Source: Clostridiales bacterium (GTDB lineage Bacteria > Bacillota > Clostridia > TANB77 > SIG350). From it: a DNA stretch of 64,000 nucleotides. A program made the position numbers and the translations under genes. Of the stretch, positions 4,552 to 58,174 are shown piece by piece. How positions within the stretch are numbered: position 1 is the first letter of the stretch; the number at the start of each line of letters is the position of its first letter. Under the pieces are notes generated by a model that ran no database searches, was not told the origin of the DNA, and saw only the letters and a list, made by a program, of their open reading frames with translations. The stretch lies in assembly GCA_015056545.1 (NCBI GenBank), contig SVGE01000001.1:93906-157905 (forward strand). The letters are read 5' to 3'.

Positions 4552-5622
4552 TTAATTTATACTTGTATCTACTATTATTAGATCCTCTGGCATATCACCA
4601 TATGCGCTAAAACTATTTAGTAATAATTCCTTAACAGTCTCACTTCCTACTATATAAGTTGTATTTATTTCTTCATAATTAATTGATCCCTCATAAAATG
4701 CTTCTTCCTCTATTATTTCAACACTACTTGGTATTGTTACACTTTCAAAACTATTTGAAGAAAAAGCAGCAATTTTAATACATTTAACACTGTTTGGTAT
4801 TACAATATTTTTTGCATTAATACCATAAAAAGTAAATTCATTTATTATCTCAACTCCATGTGGTATATTTATAGTTGTTAAATTTCCACAACCTTCAAAG
4901 GCAGACGCACCAATTTCCTTTACAGTGCTTGGTAATACTATACTTGATATTGCAGTTCCAGAAAAAGCATATTCACCAATTGAAATAACTCCATTTGGTA
5001 TTGTTACATTTTCAAGATTAATACAGTTGTAAAATGCTTCATCAGCTATTGATACAATTCCTTCTGGTATTACTATGCTTTTATATTTATCTGGTACTGA
5101 ATAGTAAAGAATATCATCTTCTACATATTCTTCAGTTTTTTCAACTAAATCACTAAATCCTAATAGTATACCATCATCAGATATATTTAAATGTGGATAT
5201 TTTTCACTCAATGACTCTTCTTCTATTTTAGCTATTCCTAAATCTGCTAACCATGTACTATATGGGTTTTCTTCTCTCGAACCTAATATCATTTCACCAT
5301 TACTTATTACTATTAAATCTTTATACTCTTCTTTAAATTCTGGTATTAATCCTTGTATATCTACTAATTCTGTTGCATTTAATTCACTTTCTCCTCCATT
5401 ACCTGTTGCCAATTTTATTTGTTCCTCTGCTTTTTTTACTGCTAATATTTCTTGATATGTTCTTATATCACTTTTAAATACTGCTTCTTTTGCCCTATCT
5501 ATTATACCACCTTCCATAAATGTAACAATTACTGCAGCTGTTAATATTATTAGTACAATTATTGTTACGATTAAAGCAACTAGTGATATACCTGATGTTT
5601 TACTATTTCTTAAATTTTTCAT
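4552..5622 (-). CDS. BspA-type leucine-rich-repeat surface protein with prepilin-like N-terminus
   Basis: Probable ATG at 5622, preceded by the SD aaggagg. The N-terminus MKNLRNSKTSG/ISLVALIVTIIVLIILTAAVIV looks like a class III (type IV pilin) leader. The C-terminal half carries repeated ...IPxxVxxIGxxAFxxC..L..I.IP... units typical of BspA-like LRR_5. Confidence 0.6.
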   Translation of the reverse strand: MKNLRNSKTSGISLVALIVTIIVLIILTAAVIVTFMEGGIIDRAKEAVFKSDIRTYQEILAVKKAEEQIKLATGNGGESELNATELVDIQGLIPEFKEEYKDLIVISNGEMILGSREENPYSTWLADLGIAKIEEESLSEKYPHLNISDDGILLGFSDLVEKTEEYVEDDILYYSVPDKYKSIVIPEGIVSIADEAFYNCINLENVTIPNGVISIGEYAFSGTAISSIVLPSTVKEIGASAFEGCGNLTTINIPHGVEIINEFTFYGINAKNIVIPNSVKCIKIAAFSSNSFESVTIPSSVEIIEEEAFYEGSINYEEINTTYIVGSETVKELLLNSFSAYGDMPEDLIIVDTSIN

Positions 5623-32851: not shown

Positions 32852-34139
32852 TTAATTTGGCTAAAATTGCTTTCTCGATTTTATCTATAGGAGCATTTTT
32901 TATCTCATTTGCAAATTTATACATCCAATAAACTTCTCCTGCTTTTATAACAGCATCAGCATATTTTTCAACATTTATTCCCATAACCGCTTTTGCGTAT
33001 AAAAAAATATATGTAGGATTTCCGATATGAATTAAAGCATTCCCCAATCTTTCCAAAGGAACATACTTTACAGTTGTTGCAAATTCATATATAGCTTTTG
33101 CATCTCCTGTTTGAATAATACCTGTAATTAACTTATTTATTGGAACGTTTCTTATATTTTGTGCAAATTCAATAATATCTTCTACACCTAAAGTAATAAC
33201 TTTTTCAGCAATTTGATTCATATGTTTTTTTGAAAGTTTCAAATCGCTTTCATTTATAATGGAAAAATAGTTTCGTTTAATAATACCTTCTACTATTTTA
33301 TCTTTTGATAAACCCTTTACTTCTTTTACAAATCTGTCAAACCAGTAATCATTTCCTTTTTCAACAACAGTATCAAACAAAACATTTATATCTGCACCTT
33401 CAATATCTGTTGCAAAATGTAAACACATATCTACATCATCTAATTTTGCAATAGCATTACAAAGTTTTATTTTATCCGATTCTTTTACTCTGTCTGCAAG
33501 ATGATATATATCTAATGCCCTATTTGCTTTTATAACAGCATCTTCTATTTTACTTAGAGAAACTCCGTTAATATTACTGTTAGCAAGATCTGCAATATAA
33601 TATTTATTATTTGTTTTAAGAAGTGCGTCTACAAGTTTATTTAAAATTTCTTGTCTATTATCTTTTGCATCAAATATATTGGTTTCTTCTTTAAAGGTAT
33701 TATAAATAAAATTGTATATGTGTTCAGCTTCACTATACTCAACAAGAATATCTACAAATTTATTTACTTTTAATCCTGACATAATCGATGATGCAAAGCT
33801 ACATACATATTTGTAGTCTTTAGTATGGATAATTGCATCAGAAAGCTCATCAATTGCTACAAAATCTGCATTAGTAGCAAAATGATATATATACTTTGCA
33901 TTATTAGTTGCAATAACATGTTTCGCTATCGCTGTAACAATACTTCTTGTTGTTGGAAATTTTTCTTCTACCTTCGGATTTTCTTCATATTTTTCCTGCA
34001 TTACTTTTGTAATATCATATTCATTGATTTCTCCAGAACTTGTTAAGAGTTTAATGTAAAAATCATTTAACGATTTTTCATTAATCAATGCTTCAACAAT
34101 TTCATTTACTAACCGTTCTTTTATTCCTTTTTCTTTCAT
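32838..34139 (-). CDS. Helical tandem-repeat protein, paralog 2
   Basis: Same 28-aa repeat grammar (AKYIYHFATNA, KAIYEFATTVKYVPLERL, YWMYKFANEIKNAPIDKI). Confidence 0.6.
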   Translation of the reverse strand: MKEKGIKERLVNEIVEALINEKSLNDFYIKLLTSSGEINEYDITKVMQEKYEENPKVEEKFPTTRSIVTAIAKHVIATNNAKYIYHFATNADFVAIDELSDAIIHTKDYKYVCSFASSIMSGLKVNKFVDILVEYSEAEHIYNFIYNTFKEETNIFDAKDNRQEILNKLVDALLKTNNKYYIADLANSNINGVSLSKIEDAVIKANRALDIYHLADRVKESDKIKLCNAIAKLDDVDMCLHFATDIEGADINVLFDTVVEKGNDYWFDRFVKEVKGLSKDKIVEGIIKRNYFSIINESDLKLSKKHMNQIAEKVITLGVEDIIEFAQNIRNVPINKLITGIIQTGDAKAIYEFATTVKYVPLERLGNALIHIGNPTYIFLYAKAVMGINVEKYADAVIKAGEVYWMYKFANEIKNAPIDKIEKAILAKLIEAQ

Positions 34140-37706: not shown

Positions 37707-37989
37707 ATATTTCTCCTAATTAAAAATCTATTTATTCCTATACTATATTAAGAATAACATTCCTTGCTTAACTTTTCAACCTTTTTTATATTAATTTATT
37801 GATTATTTTTTGTTTATTATTTTAAGCCTCATTTGTCGAATTTTGCGATGAAAAGTTTTCTTTTTTGTCATTTTGGTATTTACTTATATTTTTTTATTAT
37901 ATACTTGTTCTTGATAAAGGATATGAAACCAGGAGCGGTTAGCCTCTATTTTTTAAGGTACCACCCTTAAATGAAAGGAGGCGATTTGT

Positions 37990-38070
37990 ATGGTAGAGTT
38001 AGATTACATAACATTCTTTTCTTTAATTTTTTTACTAGCTTTTATCATAAAGCAAAAAATAAAAAAATAA
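37990..38070 (+). CDS. 26-aa hydrophobic KK-terminated peptide (candidate type I toxin), module A
   Basis: SD aaaggagg 8 nt before the ATG. ORF MVELDYITFFSLIFLLAFIIKQKIKK. It is flanked by 13-14-bp inverted repeats (gcggttagcctct at 37935 and agaggctaaaccgc at 38117). Confidence 0.45.
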   Translation: MVELDYITFFSLIFLLAFIIKQKIKK

Positions 38071-38158
38071 TCCGCCCTGTTTAATTTAGCCCTAGACAGG
38101 AGATTATTTTCTTATAAGAGGCTAAACCGCTTTTGCGGAATATCCTTTATCTATTTTT

Positions 38159-38187
38159 ATTTTACGATATTTTAATTCATATGTCAA
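38159..38187 (-). promoter_or_regulatory. Convergent promoter TTGACA-17-TAAAAT (candidate antisense/antitoxin RNA), module A
   Basis: Minus-strand TTGACA (38187-38182), a 17-nt spacer and TAAAAT (38164-38159), pointing into the small ORF. It is conserved with module B. Confidence 0.45.
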
Positions 38188-38206
38188 TAATTTTAGCTAT
38201 TTTTAA

Positions 38207-41200
38207 TTAGCTAAGTATTTGTAAAAAATCTTTAACTATATCTAATATATATTCTTGTTCATTACTCTTTAATCTTTTTATAATCATATTATTTTCAATT
38301 GAAATTTCAAGTCGGTATTTATCTACTAGTTTAACAATATTATCTCCATTAATGTTATTGTTTTCTCCTATTTTAAAAATCAGCTTATTTTGTTTTTGAG
38401 ATATTTCAAATATACCTAATTTTCTACAAATATTTTTTATTTTAGCAATTTCAATTAAATTTTCTACTTCTATAGGAATACTTCCATATCTATCTACCAT
38501 TTCATCAATTATTTCTAAAATATGCTCATTTTCTGTACATAATGCAATATTCTGGTATACTTCAATTTTTTGATTTTGATTTTCTATATATGTGTCTGGT
38601 ATATATGCAGATATTTTTAAATCTATTTGAATTTCAATATCTTCATATACTGTTTCACCTTTTAATACTTTAACTGCATCATCTAATAATTTACAATACA
38701 TTTCATACCCTATTGCTTCCATATGTCCATGTTGCTCTGAACCTAAAATATTACCAGCTCCTCTTATTTCTAAATCTCTAAGAGCAATTTTAAATCCTGA
38801 ACCAAATTCAGTAAATTCTTTTATTGCTTTTAAACGTTTTTCAGAATTCTCAGATAATAGTTTATTTTTTCTATATGTTATATATGCATATGCTTGTTTG
38901 TCTTTTCTACCTACTCTACCACGTATTTGATAAAGCTGTGCTAATCCCATCTTATCTGCATTTTCAATAATCATAGTATTAGCATTTGGAATATCTAATC
39001 CTGTTTCTACAATTGTAGTACATACTAAAACATCTATTTTCTTTTCACTAAAATCATACATAATATTTTCAAGCTCATTACCTGACATTTGTCCATGTGC
39101 AAATTCTACAACCGCATTTGGTACTAGTTTTTGTATTTCAATTGCTTTTTCTTCAATATCCTCTACTTTATTATATAAATAAAATACTTGACCATTTCTT
39201 TCTAATTCTCTAATTAATGCATCTTGTATTAAATATTTGTCATATTCAAGCACATATGTCTGTACAGGTTTCCTATTATGTGGTGGATCATATATAACAC
39301 TCATGTCTCTAATACCTACAATTGACATATGAAGGGTTCTAGGAATTGGTGTTGCAGTCATAGATAATACATCAATATCTTTTTTTAGTTCTTTTATTTT
39401 TTCCTTATGTGTAACACCAAATCTATGCTCTTCATCAATAATTAAAAAACCTAAATTTTTAAATTCAACATCTTTTTGAATTAATCTATGTGTTCCAATA
39501 ACTATATCTAATTCACCTAATTTTAATTTATTAATTATATCTTGTTGCTCTTTTCTTGTCTTAAACCTATTAAGTACTTCTACTCTAATTCCATATTCTT
39601 TCATTCTTGAATTAAAAGTTTCATATTGTTGTTTAGCAAGTACTGTTGTAGGCACTAGATATGCAACTTGCTTTCCACTCATTACTGCTTTAAATGCTGC
39701 TCTTATTGCAACTTCTGTTTTACCATAACCAACATCACCACAAAGTAATCTTTCCATAGGTCTTTGTTTTTCCATATCTTGTTTAACTTCATTTATACAA
39801 CGTATTTGATCATCTGTTTCTTGATATGGGAAATCATCTTCAAACTGTTTTTGCCAATCTGTATCTGGAAGAAATGCAAAACCTTTTGAATTTTGTCTTT
39901 GTGCATATAGTTCAACTAATTTCCTAGCAACATCTTCAATACTTTTCTTAGCTTTATTTTTAGCTTTTGCCCAATCTTTTGATCCTAATTTATTAAGTTT
40001 AGGAACACCATCATTTAATGCAACATATTTTCTAATTACATCTAATTGAACTGTTGGAACATAAAGCATATCATTATTTTGATATTTAATTTTAACATAA
40101 TCTTTTTTAACACCATTTACATCAATTGTATTAATACCAATAAACTGACCAATACCATATGTAACATGTACAACATAATCATTTGGCGATAAATCTGCTA
40201 AAACAACTTTTTTTGCATCTTTAAACACAGAAGATTTATATTGTCTTTTTTTAGGTATATTTTCTTCATTACTATCACTTAATACTAATAATTTTAAGTC
40301 TCTATATTCATAACTATTAGTATTATATCCAATAGTTATATATATTTTATTTTCATCTAATTTATCTATAAAATCTATTGAATTATATTGTTTTACATTT
40401 AATTCTAAATCTACAAATTCTTTGTAGATATTGCTTGCTTTAACTTTATTTTGAAGTAATATTAAGATCGATTTTCCTTTTCTATATTCTTTTTCCACTT
40501 CCTGAATAAATATATCCATTGAATCACGAAAAAAGTTAACCTCCCTACAATTAAAACTGTATTCTTTTCTTTTTGCAGGCATATTTATATCTAAAGTGTT
40601 TTTTTCTAATCTATTTAGATATATTAATTTTTTCTTTTCTAATATATTAGTAATATATGATAAATCTAATAATTGATAAAAATAATCTGGTACAAATTTA
40701 CCTTTTTCTATTATACTTTTAATTACTTCACCATTTTCAAAAATACTATTATTAATTCTTTGTACTACTCGTTCTGGTTCATCAACAAATATTAACATAT
40801 CTTCTGGTAAATATTCAATTACACTATATGTTTTTTCATACATACAAGAAAAATATTTATCTATTTTATTCAAGTAATTACCATTTTCTATCTCTTCAAT
40901 ATCTGATTCAATCTTTTCCGCTTCTTTTACTGTTAATTTAGTTTTATTTAAATTTTTGATATTTAATATAAATTTATTTACAAAACTTTCATCTAAAATA
41001 TATTCTTCACATGGATATATCTTAACTTCATTTAACATTTCTACTGATAATTGGTTAATTACATTAAATGTTCTAATAGAGTCAATTTCATCGCCCCATA
41101 GTTCAATTCTAATACCAGTTTCTAAATTATTTGGATATACATCAATTATTCCTCCTCTAATACAAAACTGTCCTTTACCTTCAACCATTTCAACTCTTTC

Positions 41201-41686
41201 ATAACCACTTCTTATTAATATACTTTTTATATTTTCTATATTAACTTCTTCACCTTGTTTTAAATAAAGTATACTTGTTTGATAATACTTTTTATCTATA
41301 ACTGGCACAATAACTGCATCTGCTGTAGTAATAAGTATTTTAACTTCATTGTTTGCTAATTTAGATAAAACATAGGCCCTATTTCTTATATTCTCCTTAC
41401 TTCCTGCCTCATAATCATAAACACTTACTTCTTTTTTCCCTAAAAACATAATTTTTTCATTAGTTATTTGTTTTAAGTCTTTAACTAAATTTTTAGCAGA
41501 TATTTCATTTTGAGTAATTACACAAAAAGGCCTTTCATCTGTATAATGTGATGTTGAATATATAAAATGAGATTTTTGAGCATCAGAAAATCCATTTAAT
41601 CCTATTGGATAAATGCTTTTCTTTACATTATTAATATATTCAATATATTTATTCAATTTTGGTAATCTTTCAATAATTGGATTCAT
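38207..41686 (-). CDS. mfd: Transcription-repair coupling factor
   Basis: 1159 aa with the UvrB-homology module, RNAP-interaction domain, DEAH helicase motifs (DEEHRFG) and TRG motif. Confidence 0.9.
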   Translation of the reverse strand: MNPIIERLPKLNKYIEYINNVKKSIYPIGLNGFSDAQKSHFIYSTSHYTDERPFCVITQNEISAKNLVKDLKQITNEKIMFLGKKEVSVYDYEAGSKENIRNRAYVLSKLANNEVKILITTADAVIVPVIDKKYYQTSILYLKQGEEVNIENIKSILIRSGYERVEMVEGKGQFCIRGGIIDVYPNNLETGIRIELWGDEIDSIRTFNVINQLSVEMLNEVKIYPCEEYILDESFVNKFILNIKNLNKTKLTVKEAEKIESDIEEIENGNYLNKIDKYFSCMYEKTYSVIEYLPEDMLIFVDEPERVVQRINNSIFENGEVIKSIIEKGKFVPDYFYQLLDLSYITNILEKKKLIYLNRLEKNTLDINMPAKRKEYSFNCREVNFFRDSMDIFIQEVEKEYRKGKSILILLQNKVKASNIYKEFVDLELNVKQYNSIDFIDKLDENKIYITIGYNTNSYEYRDLKLLVLSDSNEENIPKKRQYKSSVFKDAKKVVLADLSPNDYVVHVTYGIGQFIGINTIDVNGVKKDYVKIKYQNNDMLYVPTVQLDVIRKYVALNDGVPKLNKLGSKDWAKAKNKAKKSIEDVARKLVELYAQRQNSKGFAFLPDTDWQKQFEDDFPYQETDDQIRCINEVKQDMEKQRPMERLLCGDVGYGKTEVAIRAAFKAVMSGKQVAYLVPTTVLAKQQYETFNSRMKEYGIRVEVLNRFKTRKEQQDIINKLKLGELDIVIGTHRLIQKDVEFKNLGFLIIDEEHRFGVTHKEKIKELKKDIDVLSMTATPIPRTLHMSIVGIRDMSVIYDPPHNRKPVQTYVLEYDKYLIQDALIRELERNGQVFYLYNKVEDIEEKAIEIQKLVPNAVVEFAHGQMSGNELENIMYDFSEKKIDVLVCTTIVETGLDIPNANTMIIENADKMGLAQLYQIRGRVGRKDKQAYAYITYRKNKLLSENSEKRLKAIKEFTEFGSGFKIALRDLEIRGAGNILGSEQHGHMEAIGYEMYCKLLDDAVKVLKGETVYEDIEIQIDLKISAYIPDTYIENQNQKIEVYQNIALCTENEHILEIIDEMVDRYGSIPIEVENLIEIAKIKNICRKLGIFEISQKQNKLIFKIGENNNINGDNIVKLVDKYRLEISIENNMIIKRLKSNEQEYILDIVKDFLQILS

Positions 41687-45903: not shown

Positions 45904-45959
45904 AAAAAACACCTCCATAAATATTAGTTATTATTTCCAATATTTATGAAGGTTATACT

Positions 45960-57611: not shown

Positions 57612-57927
57612 AATTAATTCCACCTTTCATCTTAATATATATAGCTTTAACACTATATTAAAAATCTATAACTATATTATTCTAAAATAAAATGAAAATC
57701 AAGTAAATTAATAAAAATTTTTTGATTTTCATTTTTATACTAAAAATATATATTCATTTTTCTTTGTCGAATTTCGCGATGAAAAGTATGTTTTTTTGAC
57801 AATTTTATATTTGCAAATTAAATTCAATATTATATAATCTTTCCAAGATAAAAGGAATTAAGCGGAGTGTGGTTAGTCATCTTTGTTCATATTGGATATA
57901 CCTCCTATATGAAAGAAGATGATGCTT

Positions 57928-58014
57928 ATGAGTACATATGAATCTCTATCTTTAATGATAGCATTTTCGATACTTATAATTGCTATTTTGGAATTTAAAA
58001 ATCCAAAAAAATAA
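57928..58014 (+). CDS. 28-aa hydrophobic KK-terminated peptide (candidate type I toxin), module B
   Basis: ORF MSTYESLSLMIAFSILIIAILEFKNPKK. A degenerate SD aaagaaga sits at the same 8-nt spacing as in module A. The module is flanked by inverted repeats gtggttagtca (57870-57880) and tgactaaccgc (58068-58078). Confidence 0.4.
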   Translation: MSTYESLSLMIAFSILIIAILEFKNPKK

Positions 58015-58107
58015 TTGCCTCTGTATATTTAGGTCATAACAAGGCAATTATTTAAAACACTCAAAATTTGACTAACCGCTTTTGCGGTATTCCTTTTATC
58101 TATTTAT

Positions 58108-58136
58108 ATTTTAATATGTTTTCTTATTTATGTCAA
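58108..58136 (-). promoter_or_regulatory. Convergent promoter TTGACA-17-TAAAAT (candidate antisense RNA), module B
   Basis: Minus-strand TTGACA (58136-58131), a 17-nt spacer and TAAAAT (58113-58108). The adjacent conserved block aaccgcttttgcgg.at.cctttatctattt matches module A. Confidence 0.45.
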
Positions 58137-58174
58137 TATTTTTTTGTCATTTAAGATAATAATAAATATTTTCT

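Follow-up and report, generated by a model that had tools for sequence, protein, structure and literature searches.

The 64,000-nucleotide (nt) stretch of DNA that was analyzed here in its entirety, referred to below as the window, comes from contig SVGE01000001.1 (positions 93,906 to 157,905) of an uncultured 'Clostridiales bacterium' metagenome-assembled genome (MAG; GCA_015056545.1) of approximately 25% GC. Between mfd and prsA, both on the - strand, the window holds a compact element, designated module A, in which a + strand open reading frame (ORF) for a 26-amino-acid (aa) hydrophobic peptide, peptide A, faces a convergent promoter on the opposite strand; a preliminary description of the same sequence had proposed this element as a type I toxin/antisense RNA locus resembling txpA/RatA and bsrG/SR4, and the present analysis is concerned with that proposal. 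The naming of mfd as the gene upstream of module A was confirmed by its Pfam TRCF, CarD_TRCF_RID, and helicase domains. A second element, module B, which encodes peptide B, is situated between trmFO and fba, again on the - strand; in both cases the putative toxin ORF is oriented against the flanking genes (mfd>prsA and trmFO>fba) and the predicted antisense RNA is co-oriented with them, and each module stands alone between housekeeping genes with no adjacent phage or plasmid genes.

The perfect Shine-Dalgarno sequence (SD) 8 nt upstream of an ATG and the 26-aa hydrophobic ORF of the preliminary description were both found in place (Table 1). Peptide A has a hydrophobic core of 15 residues and a KQKIKK tail; at position 5, where all four aligned B-type peptides carry E, it too has an acidic residue. 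Type I toxins are recognized as hydrophobic peptides of <60 aa that have a single transmembrane segment and carry charge at the C-terminus (PMC6563280), and peptides A and B both conform to this description. The SD of module A is stronger than that of module B. A 37-aa ORF that overlaps ORF A in another frame (MKGGDLYGRVRLHNILFFNFFTSFYHKAKNKKIIRPV, 37971-38084, + strand) was rejected as spurious, as it lacks an SD and its ATG falls within that of ORF A.

The toxin family is directly recognizable in module B. Peptide B matches Pfam Hol_Tox (PF16935) with E = 4.2e-11 and 42.9 bits against a cut-off of 23.3, and also matches PHROG 9488; its NCBIfam matches to ComI (E = 3e-4, below cut-off) and PepG1 (E = 0.087) are weak, and the profiles of Fst/Ldr, PepA1/PepG1, and other Firmicute type I toxins gave no other match. 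By tblastn, peptide B has relatives of 50-64% identity in 51 plasmid and 37 phage records, several of them annotated 'putative holin-like toxin', with the plasmid relatives found in Enterococcus, Listeria, and Bacillus; at the DNA level, blastn with module B found no counterpart in plasmids or phages. The TxpA family has been described with 118 members, 8 of which are annotated as holin-like toxins, and for its Enterococcus faecalis member EF3263 an antisense RNA of ~110 nt over the 3' untranslated region (UTR) has been detected (Fozo et al. 2010, PMC2887945). At the gathering threshold, Rfam returned only a tRNA across the window; below it, BsrG (RF01412) matches the + strand of module B across the SD and ORF with 24.9 bits and E = 6e-4 (gathering 55), and RatA (RF01776) matches the - strand, in the 5' part of the predicted antisense RNA, with 25.2 bits and E = 0.54 (gathering 49). 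In-frame ATGs at 57919 and 57922, upstream of the start of ORF B, would allow 31-aa and 30-aa forms (MMLMSTYE...); the third ATG (57928) is the sole one with a sensible spacing to the SD GAAAGAAGA, and an exact look-up of the 31-aa form in public gene calls found it not on record.

Alignment of the two modules bore out the paralogy that had been claimed for them: they match each other over ~280 nt (nhmmer E = 7e-8 and 2e-10) and are 62% identical over 377 columns, with the greatest conservation in a 22-nt box upstream of the + strand promoter region (92%), less in the antisense promoter (74%), and the least in the ORF (51%). On this comparison, modules A and B are best described as true paralogs, of which A is the diverged copy. 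Peptide A by contrast is an orphan, the link of which to the toxin family runs only through its position, its design, the RNA scaffold, and the homology of the modules at the DNA level. Of two sequence blocks previously noted as repeated in module B, both do occur exactly twice in the window against an expectation of 0; one of them, tcgaattt(t/c)gcgatgaaaag, nevertheless belongs to a general promoter-upstream box, discussed below, rather than to the repeat. No further copy of the module and no further Hol_Tox-like small ORF was found in 0.9 Mb of related Clostridia DNA, and DNA pattern scans of viral contigs yielded no further copies. Other candidates were discarded, namely two matches of the pattern TAGATAAA-N7-CCGCAAAAGCGGTT in metagenome contigs, which are unrelated GC-rich terminators, and, within coding regions of the window, an unrelated 41-aa ORF at 45946 and an unrelated near-match AACCGCTTTTGCGT at 32985.

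The opposite-strand promoter TTGACA-17-TAAAAT, reported in the preliminary description as perfect, is present with 11 of 12 consensus positions. Promoter matches of this quality or better are expected about once per 6 kb by chance, and 19 of them occur in the window against ~11 expected; one such match alone is weak evidence, but the same hexamers with the same spacing recur, again as an 11/12 match, at the same aligned position in module B, which is not chance. Reading the - strand onward from the promoter, an invariant CCGC-AAAA-GCGG hairpin is followed by a ~20-bp stem running into UUUUUUUAUUUUUU, the complement of the lysine-codon A-run that ends the ORF; this terminator stem is kept in module B with three double compensatory changes, and in both modules the hairpin and U-run lie ~95 nt downstream of the predicted antisense start. 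A promoter followed by a terminator stem with a U-run therefore predicts an antisense RNA of ~100 nt, which would be a full complement of the 3' UTR of the toxin mRNA, including the 3' arm of its closing helix, and of the last 4-5 codons. Both modules are thereby predicted to carry a cis-antisense RNA gene that has its own promoter and terminator and overlaps the toxin mRNA.

The + strand RNA is predicted to be highly structured, with an occluded ribosome-binding site, in both modules. The 263-nt RNA of module A folds with -77.9 kcal/mol (z = -7.1), and none of 200 shuffled sequences folds as well; the corresponding values for module B are -84.8 kcal/mol and z = -8.7. Both RNAs are predicted to fold with their extreme 5' end paired to their 3' end, through GAUAAAGGAUAU with AUAUCCUUUAUC and CCAGGAGCGGUUAGCCUCU with AGAGGCUAAACCGCUUUUGCGG in module A, and through GAUAAAAGGAAU with AUUCCUUUUAUC and GGUUAGUCA with UGACUAACC in module B. 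The 13-14-bp inverted repeats noted earlier are indeed present and complementary (AGCGGTTAGCCTCT, 37934-37947; AGAGGCTAAACCGCT, 38117-38131), and form part of a longer closure in which GATAAAGGATAT (37913-37924) also pairs with ATATCCTTTATC (38140-38151). They would not, however, sequester the SD as had been supposed, but would instead close the ends of the mRNA, while the SD pairs with a separate local anti-SD (GCCUCU:GGAGGC in A, GUCAUC:GAAGAU in B). In module A the anti-SD overlaps the 5' arm of the closing helix, the last six bases of which (GCCUCU, 37942-37947) serve as both. RNAalifold on A and B together gives 44 pairs, eight of which are changed on both sides, including three in the outer closing helix and two in the anti-SD:SD pairing. 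The predicted probability of being unpaired is low in all modelled states, at 0.16-0.30 for the SD (0.26-0.30 in module A) and 0-0.35 for the AUG.

Table 1. Coordinates, within the window, of modules A and B and of neighboring features.
Feature	Position	Strand	Remarks
Module A, element extent	~37832-38190		
Module A, inserted accessory segment	37787..38206		Between conserved prsA-promoter flank and mfd stop codon; from comparison with relatives
Upstream box, module A	37834..37855	+	TGTCGAATTTTGCGATGAAAAG, 22 nt; identical in module B (57765-57786) save one T/C
Candidate toxin promoter	37865-37892	+	TTGTCA-16-TATTTT; 9/12 or worse
Candidate toxin promoter	37873-37900	+	TTGGTA-16-TATTAT; 9/12 or worse
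Candidate toxin promoter	37879-37884 and 37899-37904	+	TTTACT, 14-nt spacer, TATACT; in phase with box
Predicted toxin mRNA, module A	37907..38165	+	~260 nt; both ends placed from fold and consensus structure with module B
Closing ('main') helix, 5' arm	37913..37947	+	GAUAAAGGAUAU ... CCAGGAGCGGUUAGCCUCU; from fold and consensus structure
SD, module A	37974-37982	+	AAAGGAGG(C), with AAAGGAGG at 37974-37981; 8 nt before ATG 37990
ORF A	37990-38070	+	26 aa, MVELDYITFFSLIFLLAFIIKQKIKK; start and stop align in frame with Hol_Tox ORF of module B
Predicted antisense terminator	38064..38110	-	Hairpin directly after ORF A stop codon; in - strand reading, then UUUUUUUAUUUUUU
Closing helix, 3' arm	38117..38151	+	AGAGGCUAAACCGCU, CCGC-UUUU-GCGG hairpin, AUAUCCUUUAUC, then U-rich tail
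Predicted antisense RNA (antitoxin), module A	38055..38152	-	~100 nt; from promoter and terminator fold
Antisense promoter, module A	38187..38159	-	TTGACA-17-TAAAAT; 11/12 matches
prsA promoter-like site	37779..37751	-	TTGAAA-17-TATTCT, extended TG; in flank conserved in closest relative (L125)
mfd	38207-41686	-	Stop codon 38207-38209, adjoining module A
Module B, element extent	~57763-58140		
Module B, box to antisense promoter	57765..58136		Box 57765-57786
Promoter, module B	57796-57824	+	TTGACA-17-TAAATT
Promoter, module B	57810-57838	+	TTTGCA-17-TATAAT
Predicted mRNA, module B	~57845-58112	+	
ORF B	57928-58014	+	MSTYESLSLMIAFSILIIAILEFKNPKK
Antisense promoter, module B	58136..58108	-	
Predicted antisense RNA, module B	~58101 to ~58000	-	

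We regard module A as probably a chromosomal type I toxin-antitoxin locus of TxpA/RatA (BsrG/SR4, BsrE/SR5) architecture and a diverged paralog of module B, a reading that upholds the type I proposal of the preliminary description and draws on the Hol_Tox match, the Rfam matches, the layout, and the RNA scaffold. On the + strand, we infer an mRNA of ~260 nt for a 26-aa single-helix membrane peptide, the ends of which would pair in a long 5'-3' main helix and the SD of which would pair with the anti-SD; the primary transcript would thereby be stable but poorly translated. On the - strand, the strong convergent promoter ~90 nt downstream of the stop codon would give rise to an antisense RNA of ~100 nt ending at the hairpin and U-run that overlap the lysine codons at the ORF end. 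By analogy with RatA, SR4, and SR5, this RNA would pair with the 3'-terminal 100 nt of the mRNA, the 3' arm of the main helix included; as in txpA/RatA, bsrG/SR4, and bsrE/SR5, RNase III would then cut the duplex, and the peptide would insert into the membrane and be toxic once the antisense RNA is lost. In module A alone, and more speculatively, antisense pairing might free the 5' arm, whereupon GCCUCU could hold the SD in an SR4-like manner; such a switch is not a conserved feature of the modelled structures, because the main helix and the anti-SD hairpin coexist in module B.

Systems of this kind are already known; what is new is a member in a lineage in which such loci have hardly been described, TxpA-like sequences among Clostridia having been found only in C. 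bolteae by a large in silico search cited in a 2019 review (PMC6563280). With these modules, the TxpA/RatA architecture would extend to an uncultured, 25% GC lineage of gut or rumen Clostridia, where it lies between housekeeping genes and outside prophages. Moreover, the A/B pair would offer a clean natural example of a conserved toxin-mRNA/antisense scaffold with a peptide that has diverged beyond recognition, and this divergence bears on the number of type I toxins that are missed by protein-homology searches.

Comparison with relatives indicates that both modules are lineage-specific insertions, because relatives lack the module at either place. The distance from mfd to prsA is 14 nt (L126 and L127) or 9 nt (L129) in relatives whose PrsA is 52-53% identical. 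Homology of the window flank to the closest relative (L125, 85%) stops near 37786 and restarts at the 3' end of mfd, and the mfd-prsA gap of that relative (625-1299) holds a different insert with an unrelated 130-aa ORF, which has a higher GC content and no assigned function. With 9-14 nt in distant relatives (2487-2500 in L126) and the toxin module here (37707-38206), the junction of mfd and prsA looks like a hot spot for insertions. For module B, relatives with 76-79% identical TrmFO have other neighbors beside trmFO and no module. Transcription of txpA/ratA and bsrH in B. subtilis is dampened by Mfd, and loss of mfd renders the cells hypersensitive to the toxins of these loci (bioRxiv 10.1101/2020.05.28.121731); the position of module A directly 3' of mfd is probably a coincidence in this regard, because the location of module B is unrelated to mfd.

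Among characterized systems, txpA/RatA of the B. subtilis skin element and EF3263 share with the modules the toxin family of peptide B (Pfam Hol_Tox), and txpA/RatA has the same convergent arrangement of a toxin mRNA and an antisense RNA overlapping at their 3' ends that is predicted here; the antisense RNA of EF3263 is also close in length to the predicted one, and RatA has its sub-threshold Rfam match on the correct strand of module B. The differences are that TxpA has 59 aa against 26-28 aa for the present peptides, that RatA has 222 nt against ~100 nt, that txpA/RatA resides in a prophage-like element whereas the modules lie between housekeeping genes of a 25% GC Clostridia MAG, and that peptide A is not a recognizable family member and the Rfam gathering scores are not reached.

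Similarly, bsrG/SR4 and bsrE/SR5 of the B. subtilis SPbeta and P6 prophages display a long main helix, a sequestered SD, and antitoxin pairing at the 3' end, as predicted here, and the Rfam BsrG match of module B falls across the SD and ORF. The toxins BsrE (30 aa) and BsrH (29 aa) are, at ~30 aa, like the present peptides. In the B. subtilis systems, toxin mRNAs of 255-294 nt and antitoxins of 100-222 nt overlap at their 3' ends by 100-140 bp (PMC6562991), sizes that match the predicted ~260-nt mRNA and ~100-nt antisense RNA, and the overlap of ~100 bp predicted in both modules fits as well. Conserved bsrG/SR4 scaffolds are known to carry BsrE/H-type toxins, and BsrG variants to keep the transmembrane segment alone (PMC6562991), so that one scaffold with different toxin ORFs parallels module A versus module B. 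On the other hand, SR4 and SR5 are RNAs of 163-180 nt with four stem-loops, compared with one 5' tetraloop hairpin and a terminator predicted here; the modules are without a separate strong + strand terminator after the main helix; and the SD-tightening switch of SR4 is here a model only.

The plasmid and phage 'putative holin-like toxin' genes (Enterococcus, Listeria, Bacillus, Terribacillus, and Brevibacillus phages, including the ComI-like peptide of B. subtilis plasmids), which are mostly unannotated, resemble module B beyond the peptide, in that DNA similarity also takes in part of the 3' UTR (nhmmer E = 5e-7 to 0.06). The three plasmid homologs that were fetched have the same K-run and TAA, hairpin, and convergent promoter 110-170 nt downstream, and the two that were folded have the same 5'-3' main helix (z = -7.1 for L122 and -5.6 for L124); their toxin mRNA, however, ends with a canonical GC-rich terminator, and the upstream box is absent. 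In hok/Sok and aapA1/IsoA1, the full-length mRNA is closed by long-range 5'-3' pairing and the SD is occluded in the primary transcript, features that the predicted folds resemble; yet the antitoxins of these systems pair at the 5'/translation-initiation region, activation needs 3' processing, and the peptides are unrelated and belong to Proteobacteria and Campylobacterota. The C. difficile type I modules (CD2517.1/RCd8, CD0956.2/RCd10, and others) belong to the same class, Clostridia, and likewise comprise small membrane toxins and cis-antisense RNAs in accessory DNA (PMC6563280), but their toxins have 34-59 aa, are of other families, and bear no sequence relation to the present peptides.

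Several results weigh against the assignment of module A to a functional type I locus. Peptide A matches no Pfam family, including Hol_Tox, even at E = 10, and has no match in NCBIfam, PADLOC, or PHROGs; BLASTP against peptide B, hhalign against the four-member alignment of B-type peptides, and tblastn against the plasmid records found nothing, and phmmer with the peptide padded by five upstream in-frame residues returned 0 matches in 1.84 billion representatives. Rfam RatA and BsrG do not match module A, where E-value scans gave noise only, and their matches in module B stay below gathering; the covariation is based on two sequences alone, as no further copies were retrieved; and no canonical intrinsic terminator was found on the + strand of module A. 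Its + strand promoters are weak, 9/12 at best, and the one in phase with the box has a spacer of just 14 nt, whereas the aligned promoter of module B, TTTGCA-17-TATAAT, is better and keeps the canonical 23-nt gap from the box.

It is because of these promoters that an unlikely, though not negligible, alternative is retained, according to which module A is a decaying, non-functional copy with a drifted ORF and a crippled toxin promoter (box-phased -35 TTTACT, 14 nt from TATACT), of which at most an orphan antisense RNA is left. The lack of any Hol_Tox signature or homolog of peptide A and the low identity of the ORF, the least conserved part of the module, would be expected of such a copy. Against decay stand an ORF that is intact and in frame with the start and stop of ORF B behind the stronger SD of the two (AAAGGAGG), the retention of the acidic position 5, the hydrophobic core, and the K-rich tail, and an intact antisense promoter; the closing helix and the anti-SD:SD pairing are kept through compensatory rather than random changes, and in type I toxins the transmembrane segment is nearly all that is conserved, even from strain to strain (PMC6562991).

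Rather improbable is the view that peptides A and B act as small regulators in the membrane, as does the competence inhibitor ComI of the same family, with the antisense RNA only tuning their level, and that no addiction or defence system is involved. The weak ComI match of peptide B and the presence of a relative with 54% identity on a B. subtilis plasmid of 65 kb (H29/L123) point in this direction, as does the finding that some candidates (YhzE-2) are non-toxic and that TxpA is non-toxic in E. coli (Fozo et al. 2010, PMC2887945). An occluded SD together with a strong convergent antisense promoter is, however, the arrangement of the toxic TxpA, BsrG, BsrE, and EF3263. ComI, too, is reported to be toxic when overproduced.

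Slightly less probable still is the possibility that the - strand promoter mainly drives prsA in module A and fba in module B, the antisense effect being a by-product. Both modules do lie between co-oriented - strand genes, the insertions would otherwise cut prsA and fba off from upstream promoters, and mfd and prsA, 9-14 nt apart in relatives, are probably co-transcribed there; but the ~20-bp hairpin and U-run would in both modules end the transcript shortly after its predicted start, and a promoter-like site belonging to prsA itself is found in the flank conserved in L125. Finally, a non-coding repeat of the miniature inverted-repeat transposable element (MITE) or repetitive extragenic palindromic (REP) type is very improbable: a ~360-bp unit between long inverted repeats does occur twice in 64 kb, each time as an insertion relative to related genomes, with the terminal repeats and the ORF then being incidental, but its arms covary between copies rather than being conserved in sequence, the window contains only two copies and the 0.9 Mb of related genomes not one, copy B encodes a Pfam-recognized peptide, promoters and terminators are placed as in characterized type I loci, and inspection by eye of the module A boundaries showed no target-site duplication.

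The upstream box shared by the two putative type I modules constitutes a separate lead and a more surprising by-product of the analysis, as a cis-element that hardly varies and is strictly phased with respect to more than 100 promoters. When species-representative genomes were scanned, at least 118 exact copies (loci L002-L119) were found in ~92 assemblies, with up to 5 per genome, all but one in MAGs of uncultured Clostridia from gut or rumen; inexact near-copies are scarce, at 2 in 871 kb. Among the matches listed, the preceding T of the box (TGTCGAATTTTGCGATGAAAAG) is 97% conserved, the box is always upstream of a same-strand sigma-70-like promoter, the gap from the box to the -35 hexamer is either 3 nt (38 loci) or 22-24 nt (53 loci), two helical turns apart, and none of the other copies is followed by the hairpin or antisense promoter of the modules. 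The block tcgaattt(t/c)gcgatgaaaag is thus best read as a general promoter-upstream box of this bacterial lineage. Genes downstream of it are diverse and encode sortase, Rpn/YhgA and PD-(D/E)XK nucleases, SpoVS, KilA-N, MurJ/SpoVB-like flippase, and exported TasA-like proteins. In module B, a transcript from the box-phased TTTGCA-17-TATAAT promoter would start right at the closing helix.

In both modules the box begins with a perfect heptamer TGTCGAA, which we take to be the consensus (TGNCGAA) of the Spo0A '0A box', and a second perfect TGTCGAA is located exactly 10 bp upstream in 4 of 120 loci, no other offset occurring more than once. Spo0A as the regulator of the box is a lead and not an identification, because the other 15 bases are left unexplained by a 0A box; searches for Spo0A and AbrB motifs in a tiny DNA sample gave nothing, and no literature match for the box sequence was found. 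We put forward, as a possibility that is on balance doubtful, that a single conserved regulator, possibly Spo0A or some other response regulator, uses the box as its operator and would wire type I toxins into a small regulon, largely of accessory/envelope genes, in ~90 or more uncultured gut Clostridia species; in that case a developmental or stationary-phase signal would induce the toxins, and not solely the loss of the antisense RNA. Other interpretations were rejected, namely an rRNA/tRNA promoter element, as the locus ends that had suggested it are an artefact of fixed 8-kb tiles and no rRNA or tRNA lies downstream, and a sigma-H -10, sigma-D -10, sigma-54, or LexA box, for which the partner element is, by eye, absent or mis-spaced.

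In one box locus, in a sheep-ileum Clostridia MAG (L028, 5858-6150), the box and a TTGCTT-17-TATAAT promoter precede a 22-aa hydrophobic ORF (MSQFLKLLVLLLIYLILKLFDN) with a strong SD, behind which lie a bidirectional terminator and a convergent TTGACA-17-TATAAT promoter; this locus is best described as another, unrelated type-I-like module under the same box. Its antisense RNA could also pair with the ribosome-binding site, as in fst/par, because the 3' UTR repeats the start-codon region (CATCATGAG). In 16 of the 118 loci (L015, L024, L042, L044, L046, L050, L054, L057, L074, L081, L110, and others), the 120 nt preceding the box contain a second recurrent motif, CGTCCC(C/T), against a background of ~0.013 per 120 nt, often in inverted pairs of the form TTGGGGACG...CGTCCCCAA or TGCCA..GGGACGG...CCGTCCC..TGGCA; none lies downstream of the box, and modules A and B are without it. 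A further box locus, L017, carries at 5169-5241 on the - strand a RAGATH-18 RNA (Rfam RF03064, 73.5 bits) that is unrelated to the module.

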